Notes under the pieces: generated by a model
What the model was told of the DNA's origin: nothing
The model's database searches: none
The model's input: only the letters and a program-made list of their open reading frames with translations
Shown here: one piece after another, positions 1-64,000 of the stretch
Layout: every line of letters starts with the position of its first letter
Numbering within the stretch: the stretch's first letter is position 1
Translations under genes and position numbers: made by a program
Assembly: GCF_006345805.1 (NCBI RefSeq)
Contig: NC_042999.1
Coordinates: 168,206,001 to 168,270,000 of the forward strand
DNA length: 64,000 nucleotides
Origin: Octopus sinensis
Taxonomy: Eukaryota
Reading direction: 5' to 3'

Positions 1-2260
1 TATGTGCCACCAGCACGGGACCAGGCGAGGCTGGCAACGGACACGAACGGATGGTGCTTTTTACGTGCCACCGGCACGAGGCCAGTCGGGGCGGCGCTGG
101 CAACGGTCGCGAAATGGATGGTTCTCTTACATGCCACCGGCACTGGTAACACATCTGCAATTTCCATTGATCAATTTCGATTCTGATCCTCCCTTGCCTC
201 AACAGGTCTTCACAAGTAGAGTTTTGTGTCCCAAGAAGGGAAGGTATGCATAAGTGGCTGGCTCCATCCCATGTAGAAGGCTACGGGTTATGGACTCACT
301 TGTCCTGCCGGGTCTTCTCGCGCACAGCACACTTCCAGAGGTCTCGGTCTCTAGTCATTTCCTCAGTGAGACCTAAAGTTCGAAGGTTGTGCTTCACCAC
401 CTCGTCCCAGGTTTTCCTGGGTCTGCCTCTTCCGCAGGTTCCCTCAACCGCTAGGGTGTGGCAATTTTTCACACAACTATCTTCATCCATTCTCGCCACA
501 TGACCATACCAGCGCAAACATCTCTCTTGCACACCACAACTGATGCTTCTTAGGTCCAGCTTTTCTCTCAAGGTACTTACACTCTGCAGAGTATGAGTAC
601 TGACAATACACATCCATCGGAGCATACTAGCTTCATTTCTTGCGAGCTTACGCATATCCTCAGCAGTCACGGCCCATGTTTCACTGCCATGTAGCATGGC
701 TGTTCGTACACACGCATTATACAGTCTGCCTTTTACTCTGCGCGAGAGGCCTTTTGTCACCAGCAGAGGTAAGAGCTCTCTGAACTTTGCCCAAGCTATT
801 CTTACTCTAGCAGTTACACTTTCAGCACTACCGCCCCCGCTGCTGACTTGGTCACCTAGGTAACGGAAACTATCAACTACTTCTAGTTTTTCTCCCTGGA
901 AAGTGACGGAAGTTGATCTCAGAGCATTTTCAGTGTTTATTGTTCCTGAGCATCTGCCACATACAAAAACCATCTTCCTAGTTAGCCTTCCTTTGACATT
1001 GCTGCACCTCTTATGTGTCCATAGCTTACACTTGGTGCATCTTATAGAGTTTCTACCTACACCTTTTCTACAGATCGAGCAGGGCCATCTACCTGAAGGC
1101 GTTTGTGATTTGTCTACCTTCCTACTGATTACAACTTTGGTTTTAGCTAGATTGACTCTGAGGCCCTTCGATTCTAATCCTTGTTTCCACACCTGAAACT
1201 TCTCCTCCAGTTCTGATAGCGACTCAGCAATTAGAGCAAGGTTATCAGCATAGAGGAGCTCCCAAGTGCATCCTGTCTTGAATTCCTCCGTTATTGCCTG
1301 GAGGACTATGATAAATAGGAGGGGACTGAGGACTGAACCTTGGTGGACCCCAACCTCTACCCGGAATTCTTCACTGTACTCGTTGCCAACCCTCACCTTA
1401 CTAGCAGCGTCTCTATACATGGCTCGCACAGCTCTCACTAACCATTCATCTATCCCTAGTTTCCTCATTGACCACCAGATAAGGGATCGGGGGACCCTGT
1501 CAAAGGCTTTCTCCATGTCAACGAAAGCCAGGTACAGAGGTTTATCTTTGGCTAGGTATTTCTCCTGCAGCTGTCTTACCAGAAATATAGCATCAGTGGT
1601 GCTTTTCCCTGGCATGAACCCAAACTGCATCTCATCTAAACTGACTCTGTCTCTAATTAGTTGGGCTATGACCCTCTCCGTAACCTTCATCACCTGATCC
1701 AACGGCTTGATGCCTCTGTAGTTATTTGTATCTAGGGCGTCACCTTTACCTTTGTAGCAGTTGACTATTATGCTGCTACACCAGTCATTGGGTATGACTC
1801 CTTTGTGTATTACCTGATTAACTATACGGGTGACTAGGCTATAGCCGACACTACCAGATATTTTGAGCATCTCTGCAGTGATTCCTGATGGGCCTGGGGC
1901 TTTCCCTGTCTTCATGCTTCTAATTGACTTAACTACCAAGGAACTATCAACTCAGATAGCTGGTCCCTCTGTTGGGTTGACATTCGGCAGACTCTCTTTA
2001 TCCCATTCATTTTCTTTATTCAGCAACCTTTCATAGTGGCATCTCAAAACCTCTCTCTTTGCATCCTCATTTAGCGCAAGTGAACCATCTTCCATGCGAA
2101 CACACTTCTCTCCTACCACATCACGATTCTCTCTCACACACTGTCTTGTAACACAAAACACCTCCAGTCTTTGGTCCTCACGGCGCAGAACATTGGCAAA
2201 TTTTTTCTTATCTGCTTCCCCTCTGGCTAAATAAACCTGTCTCCTAGCTTCTCTTTTGGC
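1..2260 (-). mobile_element. RTE-clade LINE, 5'-truncated, inactive
   Basis: RT motifs KAPGPSG, QFGF, FVDMEKAFDRV, GVHQGSVLSPLLF, YADN (catalytic D lost), RGRPRKTW. Stop at 1952. 3'UTR with ~55-60 bp internal repeats runs off the window. Confidence 0.93.
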
Positions 2261-6460: not shown

Positions 6461-7632
6461 TGTCATACAAAATGTATTTTAAAGCAATAATATTTCAATT
6501 CAAACCTTTCATCATAATTTTATGTAAGAATTTTTTGTTAACTTATGATTCAAGCACCTGATTAATGATGATTTAATCCAAACTCCTGATTAATGATGAA
6601 AAATGTGATTTTGCTAAATAAATCCTATCAAATTCTTGATTAATTTCCGAATTAATTAATATACATTGACATTATATTTTACTTAATTATGATCACTAAA
6701 GGGTTGCAGTAAACTTGAGTATTGTTTCATCATCATCGAAAAACTGCAGAAAATGTAAAATAAATTTTGACAGTTAAAAATATACCAGTAGCTCATATTT
6801 AGTTAATAATATCATGATTTGTACTTCTAAACACTTTACCCTTGTGCTACTAGCCTGTCTGAGATCACTCTGGTTCTGTGATACAAATTTCTTGTTTTTA
6901 ACTGATTTAATCAAAACTTTCCATCAAAATCTCATGTTGATTTTTCAAACACCAGAATAATTATATAAAAATTATTTTATTAAATTCTCCAATATTTTAA
7001 AAATTAATTGAATCAAAAACAATGTATTTTAATGGAAATATAGTAATGAAAGCATTAAGGAACCATTTTAGCAGAATCATTAGAATAGTATATTTTAGTA
7101 GAAGGGTTAGGCTTCCCTAAGAGGTAGTACTCTGTAAGTAATTGAAAAAGAACAAAGAATATGTCACATTTAGTAAAATAGAAATAGGTTTAAACTTTTT
7201 TTACCTTGTCTAACACTAAGCAAAGAAAGAACAATTATATGAATGCATATTCTATTTTATCAAATCATTAATAAAGTGGTTGTTGGAATCAGTCAGTTTC
7301 AGAACCACTGCATCAGAGCATTGAACAGAATATGGTATTTGTTCCAGTTTTCTGCACTGAGTTCAATTCCTGAGGTTGATGAAGTTCCAGTCAAGTACTG
7401 GGGTTCTTGCTTTTATCCCTTTCTTTTGTTTTTATCCCTTTCTTTCACTCTTGATTAGTGGTTCTTAACTGGGGTCCATATAAGAATTTAGTGGGGTCCA
7501 AACAAGCAAAATAGTAAATTGGGATCCATAGTAGTATTTTAAGGGTCCATGAAAAAAATTTTGCTTTAGACGTATTTATTGCAAGAAACGGCCGGGTTTC
7601 TTTCTCCTCTCAGGCTTTGCATACTTCAACAT

Positions 7633-8552
7633 GTTTCCAGTCACACAAAAATTTACACACACATACACACACATATATTTCCAGTCACACAAACATATAC
7701 ACACACACACACATATATTTCCAGTCACACAAACATATACACACACACACACATATATTTCCAGTCACACAAACATATACACACACACACACATATATTT
7801 CCAGTCACACAAACATATACACACACACAACACATATATTTCCAGTCACACAAACATATACACACACACACACATATTTCCAGTCACACAACATATACAC
7901 ACACACACACATATTTCCAGTCACACAAACATATACACACACACACATATATTTCCAGTCACAAAACATATACACACACATATTTCCAGTCACACAAACA
8001 TACACACGCACACATATATTTCCAGTCCACAAACATATACACACACTATATTTCCAGTCACACAAACAACACACGCACACATATATTTCCATCACACAAC
8101 ATATACACACACACACATATATTTCCATCACACAACATATACACACACATATATTTCCAGTCACACAAACATATACACACCATATATTTCCAGTCACACA
8201 CAAACATACACACGCACACATATATTTCCAGTCACACAAACATATACACACACACACATATATTTCCAGTCACACAAACATATACACACACATATATTTC
8301 CAGTCACACAAACATATACACACACACACATATATTTCCAGTCACACAAACATATACACACACACACATATATTTCCAGTCACACAAACATACACACGCA
8401 CACATATATTTCCAGTCACACAAACATATACACACACACACATATATTTCCAGTCACACAAACATACACACGCACACATATATTTCCAGTCACACAAACA
8501 TATACACACGCACACATATATTTCCAGTCACACAAACATATACACACACACA
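7633..8552. repeat. Minisatellite, ~36-40 bp unit, more than 20 copies
   Basis: Unit tttccagtcacacaaacatatacacacacacacatata. Confidence 0.95.
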
Positions 8553-9830
8553 GAGTTCTATTGCAAACTTGCACAAGCAAACATGAAAAATGAAAAATAT
8601 GAATTTTGAAAGAAATATCTGTAAAACTAGTTTTTAAATATTGAATAGATATGGAGGTCTACCAGAATGAAATAGTAATCAAAGGACCTGGCTTTGAAAG
8701 TTCTAATCTTGTTACACTATTATACCAATTGTGTCTGAGAATTGTGTAAAGAATATTCAATATTCTACATGTGTGTAGGACACTGAATGCTCAGCTGCTT
8801 ATGTGAATATGACAGAAGAATGAATTCAAATAGTCAAACAACAGAAAATTCATCTTCAAGACTGACAGAGAATCCACCACCCAAATTCCTCATGTCTCTC
8901 ATGATTTACCATTAACATTTCAGTAATCCAAACACAAAGTCAAAAATAATTCTTAAGTTATTAGCCTCGCCTTCCCATATAATACATTAGACTAAAATAT
9001 ACATGTCAACCAATGAAAGAGCCTGAACATGGTCGCTTAACTTGTGAGAAATAGCAACCAAATCTCCCTCAAATTTCACTCTACTCTCTTAAATAAAAGA
9101 TGCATATATTGAACAATTAAGTTGGCAGGTTCATTAGAATGTGAAATATAATGCTTGGCAGTATTTGCTCTGGCTCTGTGCATTCAATTCCTGCTGAGGC
9201 CTGCTTTGCCTTTCTTCTTTCAGGAGAAATAAATAAAGAACCAGTCTATCACTGAAGTTGATTCTTCTCTCTATTTTCTATATTTCTTGTGTTTTTTTCT
9301 GGCAGAAATTAGCTGTGGACAAACCTGGAGAGGGTCATGCTCCACAAGGTTTTTAAAATGCTCTGCATACTACAATAGTACCCCTACAATTCTGTCTGAA
9401 GTTGATGATCCAAAGAAATAAGGACATTGAATAACACCGTTCAAGATGTTGAAAAAGACTATATGATCCTGATTGAAAACCCTTTTATTATCAGTCTACA
9501 CTATTAGGAATTAGGGTTAAAAAAATATGAGTTATATTGATAGTATAAAAAGTATGTCAATATGGAGGAGAATGTATGCCATGTGATGTGGATGGATGTA
9601 GACAGATTCATAAAGATGTGCCAATCACTTAGAGTGGATAGGACTCGTGGAAGTAGGAGACTCAGGAAGACACTGAGCCTTATGGAGGACCAAGATATCT
9701 GGTGCCTTGCTATACTTAAGAAGACCCAGCTTCACAGCAGAATTGTTACTGCTGCTCCCCTGATGGCCTGCAAGAGCCCTGTGCTGGTGCCATGTAAAAA
9801 GCTCCCATACTGGTGCCACATTATAGCACC

Positions 9831-21204: not shown

Positions 21205-22278
21205 AAAGCAGGCAGTGGTGGCCAATGGAGCCACCTCCAAGGGAACACAAAGCACTGCTGTTCATAGTGGCCCTTTCAGACATGCCCTCAGTTGCTAAGA
21301 TGGCCACCCTTGCTAGCTATGCAGATGGCACAAAAGTCTTTCACACAATACAAAACCCTGAAAATATTGCACATCTGCAACAGGAGTTGGATACAATATA
21401 CAGGTGAGCTGAGGACAACAGTATGTAGTTTAATGTAGGTAAGTCCAGGCCCTGTGTTACCGGCACACAAAAGTAAACGACATGTAGACTGGATACACTG
21501 GCCCGGGAAGAATTGCAATCCCTGAGTCAAAATCAGTGCGTGACCTGGGCATTGACATGAGCAATGATGCATCTTTCCAAGAGCATATTGCCAATTTGGT
21601 AATAAAATGCAGATGGCTAGCTGGATGGATCCTCCGAACTTTCAGAACAAGAGAGAAGGAGACACTGATGGTACTTTGGAAGACATTTGTCCTCAGCCGC
21701 TTGCACTACTGCTCCCAACTATGGTCACCACACAATATAAAACTAACAGCAGAATTCGAAGCAATTCAGAGAAGCTACACAAAGAAGATCGTCTCAATGC
21801 AACATGACAGCTACTGGGAAAGACTGAAAGTATTAAAACTCTTCTCCCTAGAGCGAAGGCGGGAGAGATATGCGGTGATATACATCTGGAAAATCCTGGA
21901 GGGTCTTGTCCCAAACTTTGACATTCAAAATTACCCCAACCGCAGAACGGGGCGCCACTGCATGGTGCCAAAGATTCCAATATCACCATCAAAATAAAAG
22001 ACAAGATACTGCAACAGCTTGCGTTTCAGGGGACCACAGCTCTTCAATATCCTTCCTAAATGCCTGAGAGACTTGCATGGTGTGGATGTGGGTTTCTTTA
22101 AAACTAAGCTGAATCTCTTCTTGTCAGGGGTCCCAGATGAACCTACCTCACGACAGGAGACACAGATGCGGGCAGTGGCATCGAACTCCCTTATTGATCA
22201 AGTGCCACGTATCAGAGGTGGATTCACATTTTAGTGTAGCTCATTCAGTGGTGTTCAAGCTAAAACATTTTTAAGGAT
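21205..22278 (+). mobile_element. CR1/L2-group LINE 3' fragment (decayed)
   Basis: YADG(D)TK, RDLG, YCSQLWSP and SLERRRERY motifs, with stops and frameshifts. Near-identical to 38064-39215. Confidence 0.88.
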
Positions 22279-25211: not shown

Positions 25212-26260
25212 CCTTAGGAAAAACCTTCGACTTTTTATAGTGGCCCTCTCAGATATACCCTCAAATGCCCGGATAGCCACTCTGGCAAGCTATGCAGACG
25301 ATATGAAAGTCTCGCAGAAAATACAGAACCCCAGCTATGTTGCACACCTGCAGCAGGAGTTAGACTCAATCTACAGATGGGCTGAGGATAATAATATGCA
25401 GTTTAATGCTGAAAAATTCCAGGCCCTGCACTACCAGCATCCAAAACTGAATATTAAACTTACAGGATCCGGTCCACAGGGAATTTCAATCCCAGAGCCT
25501 AAGTCTGTGAGGGACCTGGGTATCGACATGAGTGAGGATACCTCTTTCCAAGTAATCATTACCAGGATGGCGACAAAGTGCAGACGCCTGGGTGGATGGA
25601 TCCTAAGAACATTCAGAACCAGAGATAAGGTAACCATGATGGTCCTCTGGTGGACATTCGACCTCAGCCACCTGGATTACTGTTCACAGCTATGGTCACC
25701 CACCAGTGTGAAATTAACAGCGGACCTTGAAGCAATCCAGAGAAGATTCACAAAGAAAATCGTCTCTTTGCAACAGCTCAGCTACTGGGAAAGGTTCAAA
25801 CAGCTAAGACTCTACTCCCTGGAGAGAAGACGGGAGAGGTATGCAGTAATATATGTCTGGAAGATCCTGGAAGGAATTGTACCAAATTTTGGCATTGTAA
25901 GCTACACCAATGCTAGAACGGGACGACACTGCATAGTGCCAAAGATCCCAGCAATGCCATCACACTTCAGGACCAGCTTCTGTAACAGCCTGGGTTTCAA
26001 GGGCCCACAGCTTTTTAATATTCTCCCAAAGAGTCTGAGGAACTTGCACAAAGCAGATGTAGCGATTTTTAAATCAAAGCTGGACCTCTTCCTGTTGAGA
26101 GTCCCAGATGAACCTACCTCATGGCAAGAGGTGCAAATGAGGGTAGCTATATCAAACTCCTTTCTTCACCAAGTGCCACATATTAGAGGAGGCTCTTAGT
26201 AATAACAGTGTAGCACAAAACGGCGGTGCATCAGCATGGCCGCAGCTCTGAGCTGAAACA

Positions 26261-30141: not shown

Positions 30142-31001
30142 TTAAAAGCTGTCCTGAGAATTTTCTACCTTAGAATCATCTGCAAGGCTGTCATTAATCT
30201 CTTTATCACTATCAACACTGTCATCATCTTCAATACTATCGGAATCACCAAATGTTTGAATATTGAGGAATAAATTTTCTTTGCAACGTGCAGAAGCTTG
30301 TGCAGCAATATTTCGAGCAAACATAAAAGTTGATTCATCACGAGCAAGCAACCGGTCCTGTAAGCCAGCAAGATTTGTTCCCTGTAGATTAGGATCTGCC
30401 TCTTTCTCTTGATGGAGAAAAAAACTGTTGTTAGAATCAGAAGCTGGAATTTCAGATGAAGTAATATTTTCAACCTCGCCAATCTTCACTGCATCTAAAT
30501 TCAAATTATCTGAACCTGAAGGATAAGGATGAGAATCTGACTGAAGATTTAACTGATAAGAATTAAACTTATCTGAATCCCTAATATTTGTGCTTTGGTT
30601 CATAACTGGTGTTTGAGAATTTGGATCCAAACTATCAATTTTTGAGGTGGGGGAATCAGAATGCAAGGCATTTTGGCTAACATCCTCTGGAAATGAAAAG
30701 TTATTTAAGCTGTCAGTTTCACAATCTGTTCTTCTAGTTAAAGGTGAAAAAATTAAATTTCTCAATTGCATATCACAATCAATTTCACTGGATTGATTCT
30801 GATGAAGAAAAAATGGTTCTGAATCTTGGTCAGTTGAATTTTCTGAAATCTGTTTACTCCAAGAAACTTGACTGAAACCTGTGTCACTAGTAGTAGTAGA
30901 ACCATGTGATTCAGACATATTTATATCATCCAAATCTAAATTATCTTCACCAAGTAAATCATCACTAAGATTTTCAGACTCTTGCATAGAGTCTTTTTCT
31001 G
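30142..31001 (-). CDS. VEZT: Vezatin terminal coding exon
   Basis: Long open frame rich in S/D/N, ending LQDRLLARDESTFMFARNIAAQASAR...QTFGDSD (cf. vezatin C-terminus FTAGLAAEVAAR...QTFGG). Acceptor tttttcag, stop TAA. Confidence 0.88.
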
Positions 31002-32764
31002 CTGAAAAATATAATATAAACTATTTTTAGTATAAGAACATCAGATCAATTTTTTAAAATATAATAGTTAATTTGTAACAAATTCTGCTTATAGATTACA
31101 GCTAAGTCAAGCTTTACTAACAGCAGGGTCTACCTCTGATTGGTTATTTAACTGTGTTGAATATCTATTGATTGATTATTTAATGATATGGAAACAAAAC
31201 AGATATAAAACTGAGATTAAATTAATATACAGGAAGGTATGATTAAATCCATCAAACAAAAGAAAATCTACTATTAGGAATACCAAATACCAGTGGTAAT
31301 TTAGGGTTACTGAGTGGAATGATAAAATTCCTCATTATCATTTTTACATCTGTTTTCCATGCTTGCATGAGTTGGTCAAGTCCTCTTCAACATAATATCC
31401 ACCCCACAACACTATTTCACCATTTGTAGCATTATGATCTGGGACAAATCTGAAGTTCATTTAACGTATACTAATTCTTTTCCTAACCAGTTGTACGGAA
31501 ACTCTTTCAGTTGCTCTCATAGCTTAGTTCATCTACATGGTACCTTTGTAGTTGCTTCTGGCTGAAGCCTATTTGTTGGATATTTTCAACATCTCAATAA
31601 CATCTGCAATGGTCCAGCAGCTTTGCTCACCTTTCTACCTTTAGTACTCATTTCACCAATATAACTAACAACTTCAGTAGTTGATTTTTCTGTTGGGTCT
31701 ACTTGTGATAGTCCCTCCTCTTCCCACACATTCAGCAGCCTTAAGCCTCTTTCATTTCAGCTTCAGTACAGGTACTCTTAATACACTAATACACTTTACA
31801 CCCAAAACACCTAGAGTCATAATGACACACTGCTTCACAACCCAGAACATAATATCATGACCCAGTGACCCTCTTGTAACAGACAGTTATAAATATAATG
31901 AAATCAATATTTAAAAATTAAAACTATCTATGCTGGCATGAAGAACAGATGTCTGATGATGATGATGTCACAATCAAAATTAAGATTGTACAAAAATCTT
32001 CATGGATATCATATAGGTAGCAACTACAATTGAATATCTATAAAATTCTTTTATATTTTTAAAGAGTTATTTAAAAATAGGTCAACAAACGTCTTAGTAG
32101 ACAGATGATATAAAATGAGTAAAACCACAAACCATAAAGTTAAAAGTTCACATTGTATTTTTACCTCTGCCTTAGTGAAGGCAGGGGTATTGTTTTTCAG
32201 TCATGTTTGTTTGTCTGTGGGTAAGATATCTCAAGAACTGCTGGACGGATTTGAAACTGTTAGGGATGTTTGGCCTTGTGACTGGCACAAACTGATTAGA
32301 TTTTGGGATCAATTCAAGGATTCCGGATCATTTGTTATATTCATGTAAAGTAAATACTTTACATGAAGTATTATGATCTTTCGTTCACTTTCAGGGCTTT
32401 CTCTAATTATCTCCCTTGAAAGCATGCTCATGGTTTCCTTGTAAGTTATGGCGGCATAGCTGTTTTCAAAGTTTTATTTTCGTCTCTTTATTATTAATTT
32501 TACCTGTGTCTCTATCTTAGTAGAAACTGATGGATAAAGAAATCAAACTACATAAACAAACAGCAGCAAAACCATTCAGAAAATAAATAACACTAACATA
32601 ATCAGTAACAATAATAAATTTAATTTATCCTCGAGAATTTTTAGTTTTACCATTTTTGAATATATCGCCCCTGTTTAAAACCTCTTACCTACTTGACAAT
32701 TGCATTTCTAGTTCTGACTTGAAGGAAGCTTTACTTTTTGGATTCAGGTTTTTGTGTGTAACAA

Positions 32765-35236: not shown

Positions 35237-35312
<76 letters not shown>

Positions 35313-35615
35313 TTGTATACTGTCAACTTAACATGACAGTCCCGTAAAGGGAATCACACCACTGCTATTTAGCCCTAGGAAGCATCGATGTTTCCTAGGG
35401 CTAAATAGCGGTGCTGTGATTCCCTTTATGGGACTGTCACATTAAGTTGACAGTATACAACCGCTCTATCGTTCCACCACTGCTCATATCTCTCTGAGAT
35501 ATTTAGAAATTTAATATTTTTAATTTTGGTGATCAGTGAATAAACTTCACTGAGAATATATATATTTGCGAAGGCTTTACAAGCATCTTCAGCTAGCAGG
35601 CCATGCTACTCCAGA

Positions 35616-37731
35616 GATGTTTTTGAGTTTTTTTTGAGAAGTGAGACCGATGTGGAACCGTCATGTCGGGCGGTGCGAGAGAAATGAAGACGTATGCAGA
35701 GATCGCCAAAGCACGGGAAACCGAGAACACATACAAGATAGAGGATGTGAATATGGAGTGTGATATAGACAAGTTGAGGAAGTACAGCAAAATGGTGAAA
35801 GAAGAAGGAACGAACATAAAACTAGTCATGCCAGAAGAAGAGAAAAAGAAAGAGGAAAGAAAAACCAGTAATTTTTAGAACATTTTCTAAGGAGAACAGA
35901 AGGGTTGAGAGAGCCCCAGATGATGAAATAGAAGATCTAATAATGAGCTGTATTGATGAGGAAATAATTTTCATCACAAAAGGAAAATTTTATGGAACAG
36001 GCGCAGGAGTGGCTGTGTGGTAAGTAGCTTGCTAACCAACCACATGGTTCCGGGTTCAGTCCCACTGCGTGGCATCTTGGGCAAGTGTCTTCTGCTATAG
36101 CCCCGGGCTGACTAATGCCTTGTGAGTGGATTTGGTAGACGGAAACTGAAAGAAGCCTGTCGTATATATGTATATATATATATATGTATGAGTTTGTGTG
36201 TCTGTGTTAGTCCCCCTAGCGTTGCTTGACAACCGATGCTGGTGTGTTTACGTCCCCGTCACTTAGCGGTTCGGCAAAAGAGACCGATAGAATAAGTACT
36301 GGGCTTACAAAGAATAAGTCCCGGGGTCGATTTTCTCGACTAAAGGTGGTGCTCCAGCATGGCCGCAGTCAAATGACTGAAACAAGTAAAAGAGTAAGAG
36401 AGTAACATTTGGAACGGAAGAAGAGACAGCACAGAATGCAAAGGCATGATAGAAGGACACAAATGGACACTATTACCATGCACACCAGGGAAGAAATTAG
36501 TAAAAATCAGAGTTAGGCGGATACCACCAATGATAGAGCCTGAGTGGGTGATAGTGGGCATTTTTGGCGAAAAACTACAGGAAAAAAAAACCCAGATCTG
36601 GAGATTCACTTTGTAAGCAAGACCGAATGCTGACATTTTGGGGGATTTAGTTTAGAAATTGTCGAAAATGTAAGCCCAGAGTATTAAGAGAAAATACCAG
36701 AAACAATAGAGCTGCCAACGGGAGAAAAGTTGGAGATAATACTGAGAGGAAGACCACCCAAATGTTAGAAATGTGGCAAGAGAGGACATAAAATGAAAAA
36801 TTGTCTGGAAGAGGATTTTTTAAGATATGCAGATATAGATTTTATGACACTTAAAGAAAAACAGGTTGAGAGAAAATGCAGGAAAAGAGAAAGAAAGAAG
36901 TCTCCAACAACAGCAGAGATAAAGAGGAGTAAAGGAATGGAGGAGGAAATGCAACAAAGAACAGAAAATGTTGAGGAACCATCAACAGAGATAACAGAAG
37001 GAGAGGTGGAATTACAAAGTGATGAGGAGGTTGAACGAAAATGCCTTGACTCACATGAGAAAACACACAGAAAGAGGATGAGAAAGTGCAGTCGGATGAA
37101 TGCACAGACGAGCAAGAGTGCGAAAGCATAGAGATGAAAGGACCAGAGCGGGGAGATGTATTGGAAGAGAATGGAAATGGAAAAAGGAAGAAGAAAATGC
37201 GAGGAAAACAAAAACAACAAGTAAAACACAGTGAGATAGGTTAAAGGAAAGTAAGTATATAAATTTGTGGAAAGTACTACAATTAAAAAAGAAGCATATG
37301 AACATTGTAAATTATTGTAAAAAAAAAGAAGAAATAATGAATTGATGAACAAACAAGTATTAAAAATGTTATTTTGTTGGAAAAAAAAAGGACACAGATG
37401 AACATTTGATTTAAAGATAGGAAATGAAAGGAAAGGTCACGGTTTTGCATAACAGCGAAACTAGAGGTAGTTTTAAGAATAATTGTAAAGTGTGTTTGTA
37501 TAGTTAATTGTAAAGTTTAATAGTACAAACAAGCACTTAAAATGTTATTTTTGTTGGAAAAAAAAGGAATTGTAAAGACATTCACGGTTCATCTCGTAGT
37601 GGGGGCGAGATGGCCATCTCATTTGCATCATATTCATTCATTCCATTATCATTTTTCATTCGTTTTTATGTCCCCACATGTTTGTGTATGTCCCCTCTGT
37701 GTACAGGCCTTGTGCCTATAATAAAGAGAAA
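35616..37731 (+). mobile_element. ORF1-only non-LTR retroelement (L1/Tx1-like gag with CCHC knuckle), decayed
   Basis: Flanked by duplicated aggccatgctactccaga. ORF begins MSGGAREMKTYAEIAK; contains IPETIELPTGEKLEIILRGRPPKC*KCGKRGHKMKNC. No RT or endonuclease seen. Ends aataaagagaaa. Confidence 0.7.
36001..36403 (+). mobile_element. tRNA-derived SINE nested in the ORF1-only element
   Basis: Full-length match to the family; interrupts the gag-like ORF. Confidence 0.88.
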
Positions 37732-37743
37732 AGGCCATGCTAC

Positions 37744-37789
37744 TCCAGACTGATGATGAGCAAAACTCAGAAACATAAAGGTCTCTAGA
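37744..37789 (+). ncRNA. Type I hammerhead ribozyme motif
   Basis: Stem I tccaga/tctaga (one mismatch), CTGATGA, stem II tgag-caaaa-ctca, GAAA, minimal stem III c-ataaag-g, cleavage triplet GTC at 37781-37783. Confidence 0.78.
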
Positions 37790-38063
37790 TGCGGGCCTAG
37801 CTGTTGGGGGTGCTTGTCTCCCCTTCATAAATATAAGGACACAGGAAATGTGTCAAAGCCGACAGAAAGCGTTGATGCTTCCTAGGGCTAAATAGCAGTG
37901 GTGTGATTCCCTTTATGGGACTGTCACGTTAAGTTGACAGTATACAACTGCTCTATCATTCCACCACCGCTCATATCTCTATGAGATATTTAGAAATTTA
38001 ATATTTTTAATATATATATATATATAGCATCACTCCTTCCAAGTTAGCCTATAAACTTTTCAG

Positions 38064-39215
38064 TGGCTGCACAACTTCCTAAAAGATAGAAGGTAGGCAG
38101 TTGTGAGCAATGGAGCCACCTCCAAGGAAACACAAATAACAAGCGGTGTTCCACAGGGCACTGTCTTGAGGCCACTGCTGTTCATAGTGGCCCTTTCAGA
38201 CATGCCCTCAGTTGCTAAGATGACCACCCTTGCTAGCTATGCAGATGACACAAAAGTCTCCCACGCAATACAAAACCCTAGAAATATTGCACATCTGCAA
38301 CAGGAGTTGGATACAATATACAGGTGGGCTAAGGACAACAACATGCAGTTTAATGCAGGGAAGTTCCAGGCCCTGCACTACCGGCACACAAAGGTAAACG
38401 ACATGCAGACTGGATACACTGGCCCGGGAAGAATTGCAATCCCTGAGTCAAAATCAGTGCATGACCTGGGCATTGACATGAGCAATGATGCATCTTTCCA
38501 AGTGCATATTATTAATCTGGTGATAAAATGCAGACGGCTAGCTGGATGGATTCTTCAAACTTTCAGAACAAGAGAGAAGGAGACACTGATGGTCCTCTGG
38601 AAAACTTTCTTCCTCAGCTGCTTGGACTACTGCTCCCAACTATGGTCACCACACAATATAAAACTAACAGCAGAACTCGAAGCAATTCAAAGAAGCTACA
38701 CAAAGAAAATCGTCTCAATGCAACATGACAGCTACTGGGAAAGACTGAAAGTATTAAACCTCTTCTCCCTAGAGCGAAGGCAGGAGAGATATGTGGTGAT
38801 ATACATCTGGAAAATCCTGGAGGGTCTTGTCCCAAACTTTGGCATTCAAAGTTACCCCCACCGTAGAATGGTTCCAAAGATTCCAACATCACCATCAAAA
38901 TACAAGACCAGATACTGCAACAGCTTGGGTTTCAGAGGACCACAGCTCTTTAACATCCTCCCTAAATGCCTGAGAGACTTGCATGGTGTGGATGTGGGTT
39001 TCTTTAAAACTAAATTGGATCTCTTCTTGTCGGGGGTCCCAGATGAACCTACCTCACGACAGGAGACACAGATGCAGGCAACGGCATCGAATTCCCTTGT
39101 TGACCAAGTGCCACGTATCAGAGGTGGATTCACAAATTAGTGTAGCTCGTTCAGCGGTGGTGCCCCAGCATGGCCGCAGCCTTCGGGCTAAAACATTTTT
39201 AAGGATTTAAGGATT
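38064..39215 (+). mobile_element. CR1/L2-group LINE 3' fragment
   Basis: SGVPQGTVLRPLLF and YADDTK in an open 345-aa frame; tail (aaggattt)n then (TA)n. Confidence 0.9.
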
Positions 39216-39334: not shown

Positions 39335-40562
39335 AAAGGCGGGCTGAAAAGTTTATAGGCTAACTTGGAAGGAGTGATGAAATCTAGCATGCATTAATTT
39401 CAACTTTTCTGCATTATTAACTGCAATATTTCTTTCCCTGTAAACTAAGAACACTTCAAATGTAACTGATAGTGATTTCTCTTGAATATGGACAAAATCT
39501 GGCATCACCTTGTTATGAAATAGCTGTAGAAAAAGGGTTTAGTCTCCAAAGATTTTCATACTGACATGCTTGCAACATTAGGGGATGACACTTCAGCTTT
39601 ATCAACAATGCAAAAGTTGGCAACTGAATTTATGAAGGGAACGGAGAATCTTGAAGACTGTCCAAGGTCTGGACATCCTGCAACTGCCACCACCAAGGAA
39701 AACACTTATTGTGTTCACTACATGCTGATGGATGACAGGCCATTGACTATAAATCAAATAGCCAATGCAATTAGCATATCCTGTGAGTGAATTGAGAATA
39801 TGCTGCACAATGGACTTGGCATGACTAAGGTTTCTGCTCAGTGGGTGCCACGTCTTCTGACATCTGATCAAAAGTGCATCAAACTGATCACATCATGACA
39901 AAATCTGGCATTCTTTCAGACAGATCCAGCTATTTCCTTGAATGTTTTCTAACCCAGGATCAGTGTTGGGTTCGTCACTTTGAATCAAAGATAAAGAGAC
40001 AATCATGCAATGGGAAAACCTCTCCTCACCTGACCCAAAGAAGGGAAGGTGATAGCCTCAGTTTCTTGATGTGTTTATTGACTATCTTCAGGTGGGCCAC
40101 ACCATCAATGGAGAGTACTATACAAACTTGCTGAGGTAGTTATGAAAGGTTATCAAGACCAAATTCCCAGGAAAACCGATGAAAGAGGTCTTGTTTCATC
40201 AGAACAATGCTCCAGAACAATGAAGGACTTGAAATGAACAAGTCCTTCATTTCAATGGCTGTTGTGTGTATCTGTGGCTTTGAACTGGCTGATCACCATC
40301 CCTATTCTCCTGACTTGGCCCCATCTGACTATCACCTGTTCTCCAACTTGAAAAATGACTTGGCTGGGAAGCAGCGTTGCAATGATGATGACATCATCTC
40401 TGCTGTTGATGACTTTTTTTTTACCAGCAGGATGAAAGATTCTTCACCAATGGCATCCAAGCACTGCAACATTGATGGAAGTATGTCAACTGCAAGGAAG
40501 GGCGGTATTTTGAAAACTAAACCTTGTTTGGTCACATTCCATGAGAGTATCTTGGTCAGCCA
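39335..40562 (+). mobile_element. Mariner transposon, near full-length, decayed
   Basis: TIR-like gggctgaaaagtttataggct; SAQWVP, HQNNAP, HPYSPDLAPSDYHLF. Confidence 0.85.
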
Positions 40563-41367
40563 ATCCTCATGTGTGAACGTAAGTAGGTGTATATTTATAT
40601 ATATAGATACAAAATTAATGACAAATAGTAACTTGAAAACAAAGTGTAGCTAATATGTTTACACTCAAGTAAGAAAAGGAAGCAGAAATGTCTTTGATGT
40701 TTCAAGTTTAAGATAGTGTAATTGTCGTCACCCTCACCATTATCATCCCTGTATACTGTCTATGTTCCATGCTGATAAGGGTTAGAGAGTTTGACAGGAT
40801 CCAGCAGGATCAAAGACTCTACCATTCTTCAATCTATTTTAGTATGGTTTCCATGGCCGGACACCCTTCCAAATGCCAACCACTTTACAGCATATATTGG
40901 GTAAAGTTTTTGTGCCATAAGTACTAGTAAGGTTAACATGCAGTTTGCAAGATAATGAACCCCAAGAGAGGAAGCTTTATGATAGAAAATGAGGGATTAA
41001 AGTATGCGAGACGGGGGCCTGCAAAGGACAGGTTTCTTGCTGTAGAGGACCTACATAGCTACATGGCTACTCACACTTTAAAAGCGAGGGTGGAATAAGG
41101 GTGGAGCTAAAAAGGGATAAAAATAGTGGTGATGAAGGGCCTGGATGAACCCTCAAGATATGAGCACGTAGATGTGAATGGGGACAGAACTGGGAGTGTG
41201 GGTGGGTAAGAGGCTGCAAGAGTGTATAGGAGAGCAAGTGATGGGGAATGAGTGAGGGGATGAATAAAATGAATGAAAAAGTGTTGAAGGATAAGTAGTG
41301 AGATAGAAAAAAAGTTATATTTTTCACAGTTGCATCACTATATTTGCACACACACAAACAGAGACAC

Positions 41368-62584: not shown

Positions 62585-64000
62585 AGCAGCCACGATCAGT
62601 TGGTGCTTTTTACATGCCACCCACACAGATGCCAATCAAGGCGGCGTTGGCATCAGCCACATTCGGATGGTGCTTTTTATGTGCCACCAGCACAGGTATT
62701 ACAACTACAATTTCCATTTGATATTTATTTTGATGTTGATGTACTTGACTCGATAGGTCTCCTAAAGCACAGCAGGTCACCCTAAAATCCAAGGTAAACA
62801 CAGCAGGTCATTCTCCGATCCAAGGTGCTTTGGATGCAAAACTGGTACAAGAAACAGCCATGAACTCACATTATTTGTCAGGTCTTTGCAGTCACAGTAT
62901 ATTTCCAGAGATCTTGGTCTTTCATCATTGCCTCTGTGAAGCGCAACATTCGAAGATCATGCTTGACCACCTCATCCCATGTCTTCCTGGGTCTCCCTCT
63001 TCCCCGGATACCTTCAACTGTTTGGGAGTGGCACTTCTTCACACATCTCTCCTCATCCATCCGCAGTACATGACCATACCATCGCAAGCGTCTCTCTTGC
63101 ACACCACATCCAATGCTTCTTATGTTCAGCATTTCTCTCAGGGCACTTACACTCTGTCGTGTGTGCACACTGACATTACACATCCAGCAGATCATGCTAG
63201 CTTCATTTCTTTCAAGCCTACACATGTCCTCTGCAGTCACAGCCGATGTTTCACTATTGTGAAGCATGGCAGTTCGCATACATGCATCGTACAATCTACC
63301 TTTCACTCTGAGCGAGAGACCCTTTGTCACCAGTAGGGGTAGAAGCTTTCTAAACTTTACCCAGGCTATTTGTATTCTAGTGGTGACACTCTCTGAGCAT
63401 CCACCTCCACTACTAACTTGGTCACCTAGGTAGAGGAAACTATCAACTACTTCTAGTTTCTCCCCCTGGAGTGTGATGGAATCTGTTTTCTGAGTATCCA
63501 TGGTGTCTATTGCCCCTGTGCATCTGCTGCATACGAAAGCTATCTTCTTGGTTAATTTTCCTTTGATGTTGCTGCACCTTTTATGCGTCCATAGCTTACA
63601 CTGGGTATATATTATGGAGTTTCTACCTACACCTTTTCTACAGATCGAGCAGGGCCACCTACCTGAGGGGGTGTGTGATGAGTTCGCCTTCCTGCTTACT
63701 ATAACTTTGGTCTTTGCTACATTTACTCTAAAGCCTTTTGATTCTAAACCTAGCTTCCACACCCAAAATTTCTTTTCTAGTTCCAGTAGTGATTCTGCTA
63801 TGAGGGCCAAGTCATCAGCATAGAGGAGCTCCCAGGGGCAATGTCTTGAATTTCTTTGTTATTGCCTGGAGGAATATGATGAATAGAAGGGGACTGAGGG
63901 CTGAACCTTGGTGGACCCCTACTTCTACCTGGAATTCTTCACTACATTCATTGCCAATCCTAACCTCTCTGCTTAGGGCCTGTACAGCCCTTATCAACAA
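62585..64000 (-). mobile_element. RTE-clade LINE, frameshifted, runs off window
   Basis: GVHQGSALSPLLF, YADD, same Cys-rich insert and C-terminus as the copy at 296-1939. Confidence 0.92.

Follow-up and report, generated by a model that had tools for sequence, protein, structure and literature searches.

We have found an ORF1-only retroelement of LINE type inserted into a hammerhead ribozyme in the genome of Octopus sinensis. The window (the whole stretch of DNA analysed, 64,000 nt of contig NC_042999.1, to which all positions below refer) carries an 18-bp duplication that is a true target-site duplication and that makes up the 5′ strand of helix I of the ribozyme. To judge by its sequence and by that of related contigs, the inserted element looks like a copy of a small HAL1-like family of the L1/Tx1 type, with diverged copies in two organisms. 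The reading we favour, with a probability of roughly one half, is that this family prefers the hammerhead helix-I site by its DNA sequence.

The hammerhead, which the initial annotation had recognized from the sequence, is real: it is the sole match of a descriptor scan in the window, and 0 of 100 shuffles produced a match. A narrow Rfam scan yielded a full-length alignment to Hammerhead_HH9 (RF02275) with an E-value of 3.2e-4 and 23.8 bits, the gathering score being 52; at gathering level Rfam found no hammerhead in the whole window, and a 2.9-kb E-value scan likewise missed the candidate. Rfam matches to snoRNA and miRNA families were rejected as chance. The type I core (37750-37783, plus strand) consists of CUGAUGA (37750-37756), helix II (37757-37769), GAAA (37770-37773), a short helix III and GUC, with the cut predicted after 37783. 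The 3′ strand of helix I with its outer extension follows at 37784-37815 (plus strand) in the pre-insertion fold. The type assignment is based on CUGANGA, GAAA, the UH core and three helices of canonical sizes in type I order. Two further claims of the initial annotation hold as well: the duplication is the 5′ strand of helix I and ends directly before CUGAUGA, and the core is intact on the 3′ side of the insert, where positions 1-77 of the HH9 model align.

Some details of the ribozyme are atypical. The base of helix II is a U-A pair in place of G10.1-C11.1, a pair described as highly conserved in hammerheads. Loop III is non-palindromic at this locus and palindromic in loose-end consensuses of other copies. 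The locus ribozyme looks decayed, since in other copies loop III is palindromic or positions 37777 and 37780 carry different bases. Across the host repeat the ribozyme comes in two forms or more: loop III is palindromic and very short in the common form, and helix III is longer in a minority form. The U-A pair of helix II is kept in both. For metazoan hammerheads with such a short helix III, poor cleavage of monomers has been described.

The two copies of the 18-mer (35598-35615 and 37732-37749, both on the plus strand) are identical, and the identity extends in neither direction. The left copy comprises the inner 5′ strand of helix I plus loop 1; the right copy rebuilds the inner 5′ strand of helix I. 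The chance that the 18-mer recurs within 6 kb is ~3e-8. When isolated exact repeats of at least 18 nt with a spacing of 0.3-6 kb were collected from the window, all besides the 18-mer came from a tandem array (near 7.7-8.5 kb) or from two copies of a SINE; a second isolated repeat, of 20 nt (60862/62602), turned out to be two SINE copies. In the computed pre-insertion site, the 16 bases to the left of the duplication pair with 37800-37815. The pre-insertion fold has an energy of −41.8 kcal/mol, and none of 500 random flanks was equally low; the folding z is −2.68 for the empty site versus −0.24 for the filled junction. In public sequencing runs, 21 contigs (run X1) and 2 contigs (run X5) continue to the left of 37732 into host-like flank, so uninterrupted sites exist.

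The length of the insert is 2116 bp (35616-37731), or ~1.71 kb minus a nested high-copy SINE, in agreement with the initial annotation. The SINE (36000-36403, plus strand) is flanked by its own 4-bp duplication (35996-35999 and 36404-36407) and has 11 other matches in the window. The inserted element is oriented along the plus strand throughout: a 5′ UTR of 68 nt (35616-35683), with the start codon set by alignment to a homologous protein, P0002, is followed by a decayed ORF1 (35684-37243) and an AT-rich 3′ UTR (37244-37731). The AATAAA and A-rich end noticed earlier are present at 37720-37725 and in the short A-rich terminus thereafter. The target-site duplication, the poly(A)-type 3′ end and the lack of terminal repeats are those of an element inserted in the LINE manner, by target-primed reverse transcription. 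The tail contains a small hairpin (37704-37716), and the first five bases of its 5′ arm are also those that begin the target duplication; the hairpin could be a recognition stem, or it could be chance.

An RT had been reported as missing from the insert, and we reached the same result: RT and APE motifs are absent in six frames, and the RT of a neighbouring element used in tblastn gave zero matches to the insert. Downstream of ORF1 there are only ~490 AT-rich nt, motif-free in six frames. Because an ORF2 with APE and RT is absent, the insert is at most a non-autonomous derivative. This copy encodes ORF1 alone, as HAL1 (half-L1) does, an element for which Bao and Jurka 2010 is reportedly the reference.

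The decayed ORF1 has ~380 codons and encodes a ferredoxin/RRM-like domain, a CCHC knuckle and a charged C-terminal half; it is broken by the SINE, by at least three frameshifts and by three in-frame stops. The initial annotation had described a decayed, gag-like ORF with a GRPPKC motif and a CX2CX4HX4C knuckle. The decayed frame and both motifs were confirmed, with the knuckle at 36763-36804 (plus strand) and a stop codon behind its first cysteine, but the label ‘gag-like’ had to be given up, as the frame is a LINE ORF1. The match of the Pfam zf-CCHC profile to the insert is weak (E-value 0.036, under the cut-off). A profile-free search with the knuckle region as a query (X placed at its three stops) detected, in a set of 1.84 billion proteins, 37 with E≤0.001. 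The top homologue, P0002, is an intact protein of 379 aa, named Octopus vulgaris and annotated as a gene. It aligns to the insert in five pieces of 70-79% identity, from 35684 to 37178, spanning the SINE and at least three frameshifts. Further ORF1 homologues are named O. vulgaris, O. bimaculoides and O. sinensis; altogether there are more than 20, divergent (many lineages have <50% identity) and mostly fragments. The knuckle was detected at E≤0.05 in 12 of the 23 aligned homologues, and P0002 itself is under the Pfam cut-off. The alignment includes one apparently unrelated protein, P0020, which together with multi-knuckle matches was set aside as generic knuckle similarity. A near-relative protein search returned two proteins only, and relatives were not found among viral contigs; protein searches for longer forms, ORF1-ORF2 fusions or a partner, which are weak searches, gave none.

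The predicted structure of ORF1 has a confident ferredoxin-like domain ahead of the knuckle (residues ~133-221). A wide structure search with this domain gave a best Z of 6.0 (rmsd 2.6, 79 aligned), with matches to generic folds that are not specific to RRM, and Foldseek with the predicted ORF1 structure gave zero matches at E≤1e-3. The Atlas neighbours of ORF1 include CCHC, ZCCHC3-type RNA-binding (cluster 0.89) and DUF4283 domains, which is a lead, not a placement. Domains of these three kinds are typical of L1/Tx1 ORF1, and ORF1s of the RRM/CCHC type are present in other LINE clades too. As the insert has no RT, its clade was inferred from ORF1, the tail and the duplication; with the clade type so derived, the earlier description as an ORF1-only L1/Tx1-like element is borne out by the ORF1 homologues and by diverged genomic copies.

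These copies were seen in public sequencing runs compared with positions 36410-38010. Four of the 24 listed runs were used; three are DNA runs, from two organisms, and the fourth, X5, is guessed to be RNA, its cover of the host repeat and of 37409-37642 not being taken as expression. In the three DNA runs, 30 of 30 bins of the query were covered. Besides contigs identical to the locus, there are diverged ones with up to 45 differences in ~290 nt, collinear past the end of ORF1 to 37271; variants tile the 3′ UTR, and among the joints listed the skips within the element are no longer than 121 nt. The collinear diverged contigs suggest that the loss of ORF2 may be a trait of the family. The last ~80 nt of the element occur in 40-50 contigs per run, far above the body, an excess of the kind that 5′ truncation, or a tail held in common with a partner, would produce. 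Summed contig depth, divided by that of the identical-locus contig, is ~4-26x for the body, ~240-450x for the tail and ~1300-2100x for the ribozyme, figures which represent a gradient only and not copy numbers. Opposite-strand joints at 37731/37732, considered as a hot spot, are probably host truncations piling up at the edge of the reference. A 22-nt pattern of the tail matched no viral contig and no prokaryote genome; in metagenomes it matched once (L001), over 24 nt of a bacterial contig, and this match was put down to chance. A 24-nt pattern of the target had no match in prokaryote genomes and none in one supplement of PMC8557442.

The initial annotation had placed the ribozyme in a repeat of the retrozyme/Penelope type, and the anatomy of the flanks upholds this. 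The host unit is 353 bp long and is present in 1.4 copies between microsatellites, with a single ribozyme at the locus. A 148-nt segment of the unit (35377-35524, plus strand) occurs again, with 11/148 mismatches, at 37864-38011 (plus strand), where it leads into (TA)n. The first copy is followed by the host repeat upstream of the ribozyme (35525-35597, plus strand), whose last part (35581-35597) supplies the outer 5′ strand of helix I and is now severed from its partner. An inverted, truncated end of the host repeat (35303-35386, minus strand; 5/84 mismatches to 37874-37957) forms a palindrome with 35387-35470 and is preceded by a (TA)n(GA)n microsatellite. The 148-nt direct repeat and the inverted arm place the ribozyme within the 353-bp unit; this structure of unit, direct repeat and inverted arm lies outside the coordinates originally described.

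A non-coding unit in the range of 150-450 bp, a type I hammerhead, tandem arrangement and high copy number are the properties of a non-LTR retrozyme, and the partial tandem, the inverted truncated copy and the microsatellite target are marks of Penelope-type insertion; an ORF for RT or GIY-YIG was not found between the host repeats. The host repeat reaches extreme abundance in each of the three DNA runs. The segment 37814-37975 is several-fold more abundant than the ribozyme, often breaks off into AT-rich sequence at 37948 or 38006, and has many opposite-strand joints, which represent many truncated, inverted insertions. This octopus retrozyme family with its two ribozyme forms merits a separate description.

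Other features of the window are listed here for completeness. A 5′-truncated LINE at 38097-39200 retains an open RT end of 347 codons (Pfam RVT_1, E-value 2.4e-10) and has relatives at 21212-22228 and 25231-26193. A stretch of ~25 nt in its 3′ UTR, near 39155-39185, recurs at the 3′ terminus of the nested SINE (near 36345-36370), and it is possible that the two are a SINE-LINE partner pair. A 551-codon open frame at 299-1951 (minus strand) encodes an RT (RVT_1, E-value 8e-31) and then a PHD-like finger (PHD, E-value 7e-5); a similar frame is located at 62881-63858. The acidic open frame of 292 codons at 30145-31020 (minus strand), with no Pfam match, is probably a host exon, and the insertion locus may be within or close to a gene on the minus strand. 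Broken transposase-like frames at 39530-40650 have no Pfam match at an E-value of 0.01 and contain motifs which we take to be Mariner-type. Units of ~38-40 nt make a tandem array at 7518-8606.

The insertion could have come about as follows. The endonuclease and RT of a partner LINE would copy the ORF1-only element in trans, by target-primed reverse transcription. We infer that the partner endonuclease would recognize the DNA of helix I, where a dispensable repeat of high copy number is most conserved. By general LINE biology, the bottom strand would be nicked at the 5′ edge of the 18-mer, and the element RNA would be copied from there. A second nick just before CUGAUGA would yield the 18-bp duplication, so that the base preceding CUGAUGA would mark the second nick. 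The duplication rebuilds the full HH9-type motif behind the insert, at the price of the outer 16-bp extension of helix I. The ribozyme would thus serve as an address rather than as a catalyst, and the element RNA would end at its own poly(A) signal.

Several indirect points favour a preference for the helix-I site. The duplication falls wholly in a conserved strand of the ribozyme, and the side of the first nick lacks the A/T run that non-specific L1 sites have there by the L1 consensus. With assumed counts, hammerheads amount to ~5e-5 to 5e-4 of the genome, a share so tiny that a given copy would be unlikely to strike one at random. An odds sketch for targeting gave values of 0.13-0.99 with guessed priors. 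The use of other transposons as targets is documented for Tx1 families (PMC4494074), and 80 families of L1-Tx1, 13 of them recently active, are reported in O. vulgaris (PMC13282606). The criterion of target preference stated in PMC4494074 is that >20% of flanks lie in one repeat; here the filled site was read at one locus only, and its 3′ junction was bridged by 0 of the 32 contig pieces listed, a further 9884 pieces falling outside the listing. No LINE that targets a hammerhead turned up in the literature searched; such a family may be contained in sources beyond that search, namely Repbase Reports, the paper of Kojima and Fujiwara 2004 or the octopus repeat library that has been deposited.

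The same element, moved by the same mechanism with no sequence preference, may have struck a very abundant repeat by chance; we hold this to be possible, if somewhat doubtful. The extreme abundance of the host repeat in the three DNA runs favours it, as does the composition of the O. vulgaris genome, reported to contain 6.83% Penelope-like repeats, 56 Mb of L1-Tx1 and ~66% repeats in all (PMC13282606), so that some chance nesting is certain. We also counted against targeting that a scan of this kind selects striking cases, and a second filled site was seen neither among the contig pieces listed nor in the pattern scans of microbial, viral and metagenome sequences. A chance hit is, however, at odds with the confinement of the duplication to a conserved ribozyme strand of small genome share and with the nick lacking an A/T run; a weaker point is that no loose end was observed at 37720-37731 among 24 of 863 rows.

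Targeting would also be superfluous if one old insertion in a retrozyme unit had later been copied along with the unit by Penelope-type machinery, a history that we consider quite unlikely. The Penelope-type marks of the host agree with it, and the locus has the minority form of the ribozyme (37777-37780), for which the summed depth in run X1 is of about the order of that of the element body. The distribution of the last ~80 nt, seen in 40-50 contigs per run and thus in more than the body, fits independent 5′-truncated insertions or a shared tail instead, and a passenger of 2 kb far exceeds the 150-450 bp given for retrozyme units in PMC7229834.

A more active role of the ribozyme had been proposed in the initial annotation, in which read-through transcripts would be self-cleaved to a defined 3′ end. 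In full, element and host repeat would be transcribed together, self-cleavage after 37783 would fix the 3′ end, and 52 nt of read-through target would pair with the nicked DNA and so prime reverse transcription. We regard this, too, as quite unlikely. The AATAAA lies 58 nt ahead of the cut site, and its end is 6 nt ahead of the duplication; given the general spacing between a poly(A) signal and cleavage, normal polyadenylation would cut inside helix I. Helix III and the base of helix II are atypical, with U-A at the position of G10.1-C11.1 and a non-palindromic loop III, unlike other copies at 37777 and 37780, and the poor monomer cleavage described for such short helices III argues in the same direction. 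On the other side, the duplication restores a whole HH9-type motif downstream of the element, the 5′ UTR is just 68 nt long, and R2 is described as dependent on co-transcription with its target (PMC4494074). A wider variant, in which an octopus LINE lineage together with its ORF1-only satellite homes to the helix-I strand, and ribozymes of tandem arrays excise the element RNA with defined ends, appears unlikely.

It is still less probable that the insert, rather than belonging to a mobile family, arose as a processed pseudogene from a host gene of LINE-ORF1 descent (ZCCHC3-like). A single ORF, a poly(A) signal, an A-rich end and a duplication likewise define retrocopies, the intact homologue of 379 aa carries a gene annotation, and the Atlas neighbours include the ZCCHC3-type cluster (0.89); the more than 20 divergent and mostly fragmentary homologues, and the several diverged genomic copies with a 3′-biased profile, are evidence to the contrary. 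That the 18-mer is a terminal repeat of the element itself, a possibility which the initial annotation had set beforehand as one that would count against it and which has only the identity of the two copies in its favour, is ruled out by the pairing of the bases outside the duplication across the insert and by the empty host sites in other runs.

Target-specific Tx1 LINEs described in PMC4494074 include Tx1L in Tx1D, Tx1-Mar in Mariner-N4_AMi, and Tx1-8_Crp and Tx1-4_AMi in LTR elements. The octopus element is similar to these in its long target-site duplication inside a high-copy dispensable repeat, its L1/Tx1-type ORF1 and its AATAAA/A-rich end; unlike them, it has no ORF2, its target is a ribozyme helix and one filled site is known. 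With HAL1 it shares ORF1 as the only frame, a poly(A)-type end and the requirement for an autonomous partner (PMC5753468). HAL1 is described there from mammals and, as far as that account goes, not as site-specific, whereas the octopus ORF1 has a CCHC knuckle and octopus-only homologues.

Metazoan non-LTR retrozymes, of which those of mussels have units of 350-390 bp (PMC7229834), are resembled by the host repeat in unit length (353 bp), in the canonical type I hammerhead, in the partial tandem and in the very high copy number. The octopus repeat differs from them in having 1.4 units and a single ribozyme at the locus, and U-A as the basal pair of helix II. Its partial tandem, adjacent inverted truncated copy, microsatellite flanks and hammerhead near the 3′ end are also seen in Penelope insertions as described in PMC8557442 and PMC4209133. 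Unlike the Penelope elements of these accounts, the octopus repeat has no RT/GIY-YIG ORF, and its ribozyme has helices of canonical sizes, whereas the minimal Penelope hammerheads have a long helix II and a short helix I.

If the insertion into the ribozyme was chance, an undescribed HAL1-like family and an octopus retrozyme-like repeat remain, which would be useful for annotation only. An endonuclease with an 18-bp stagger and a short defined target would be of interest for tools of site-specific insertion. If the site preference is true, a catalytic RNA motif would join the targets of Tx1-type LINEs, as a new target for a known habit of Tx1, and the octopus genome would harbour a parasitism of three tiers, made of an ORF1-only element, an autonomous LINE and a retrozyme, the last being in turn reliant on Penelope elements.
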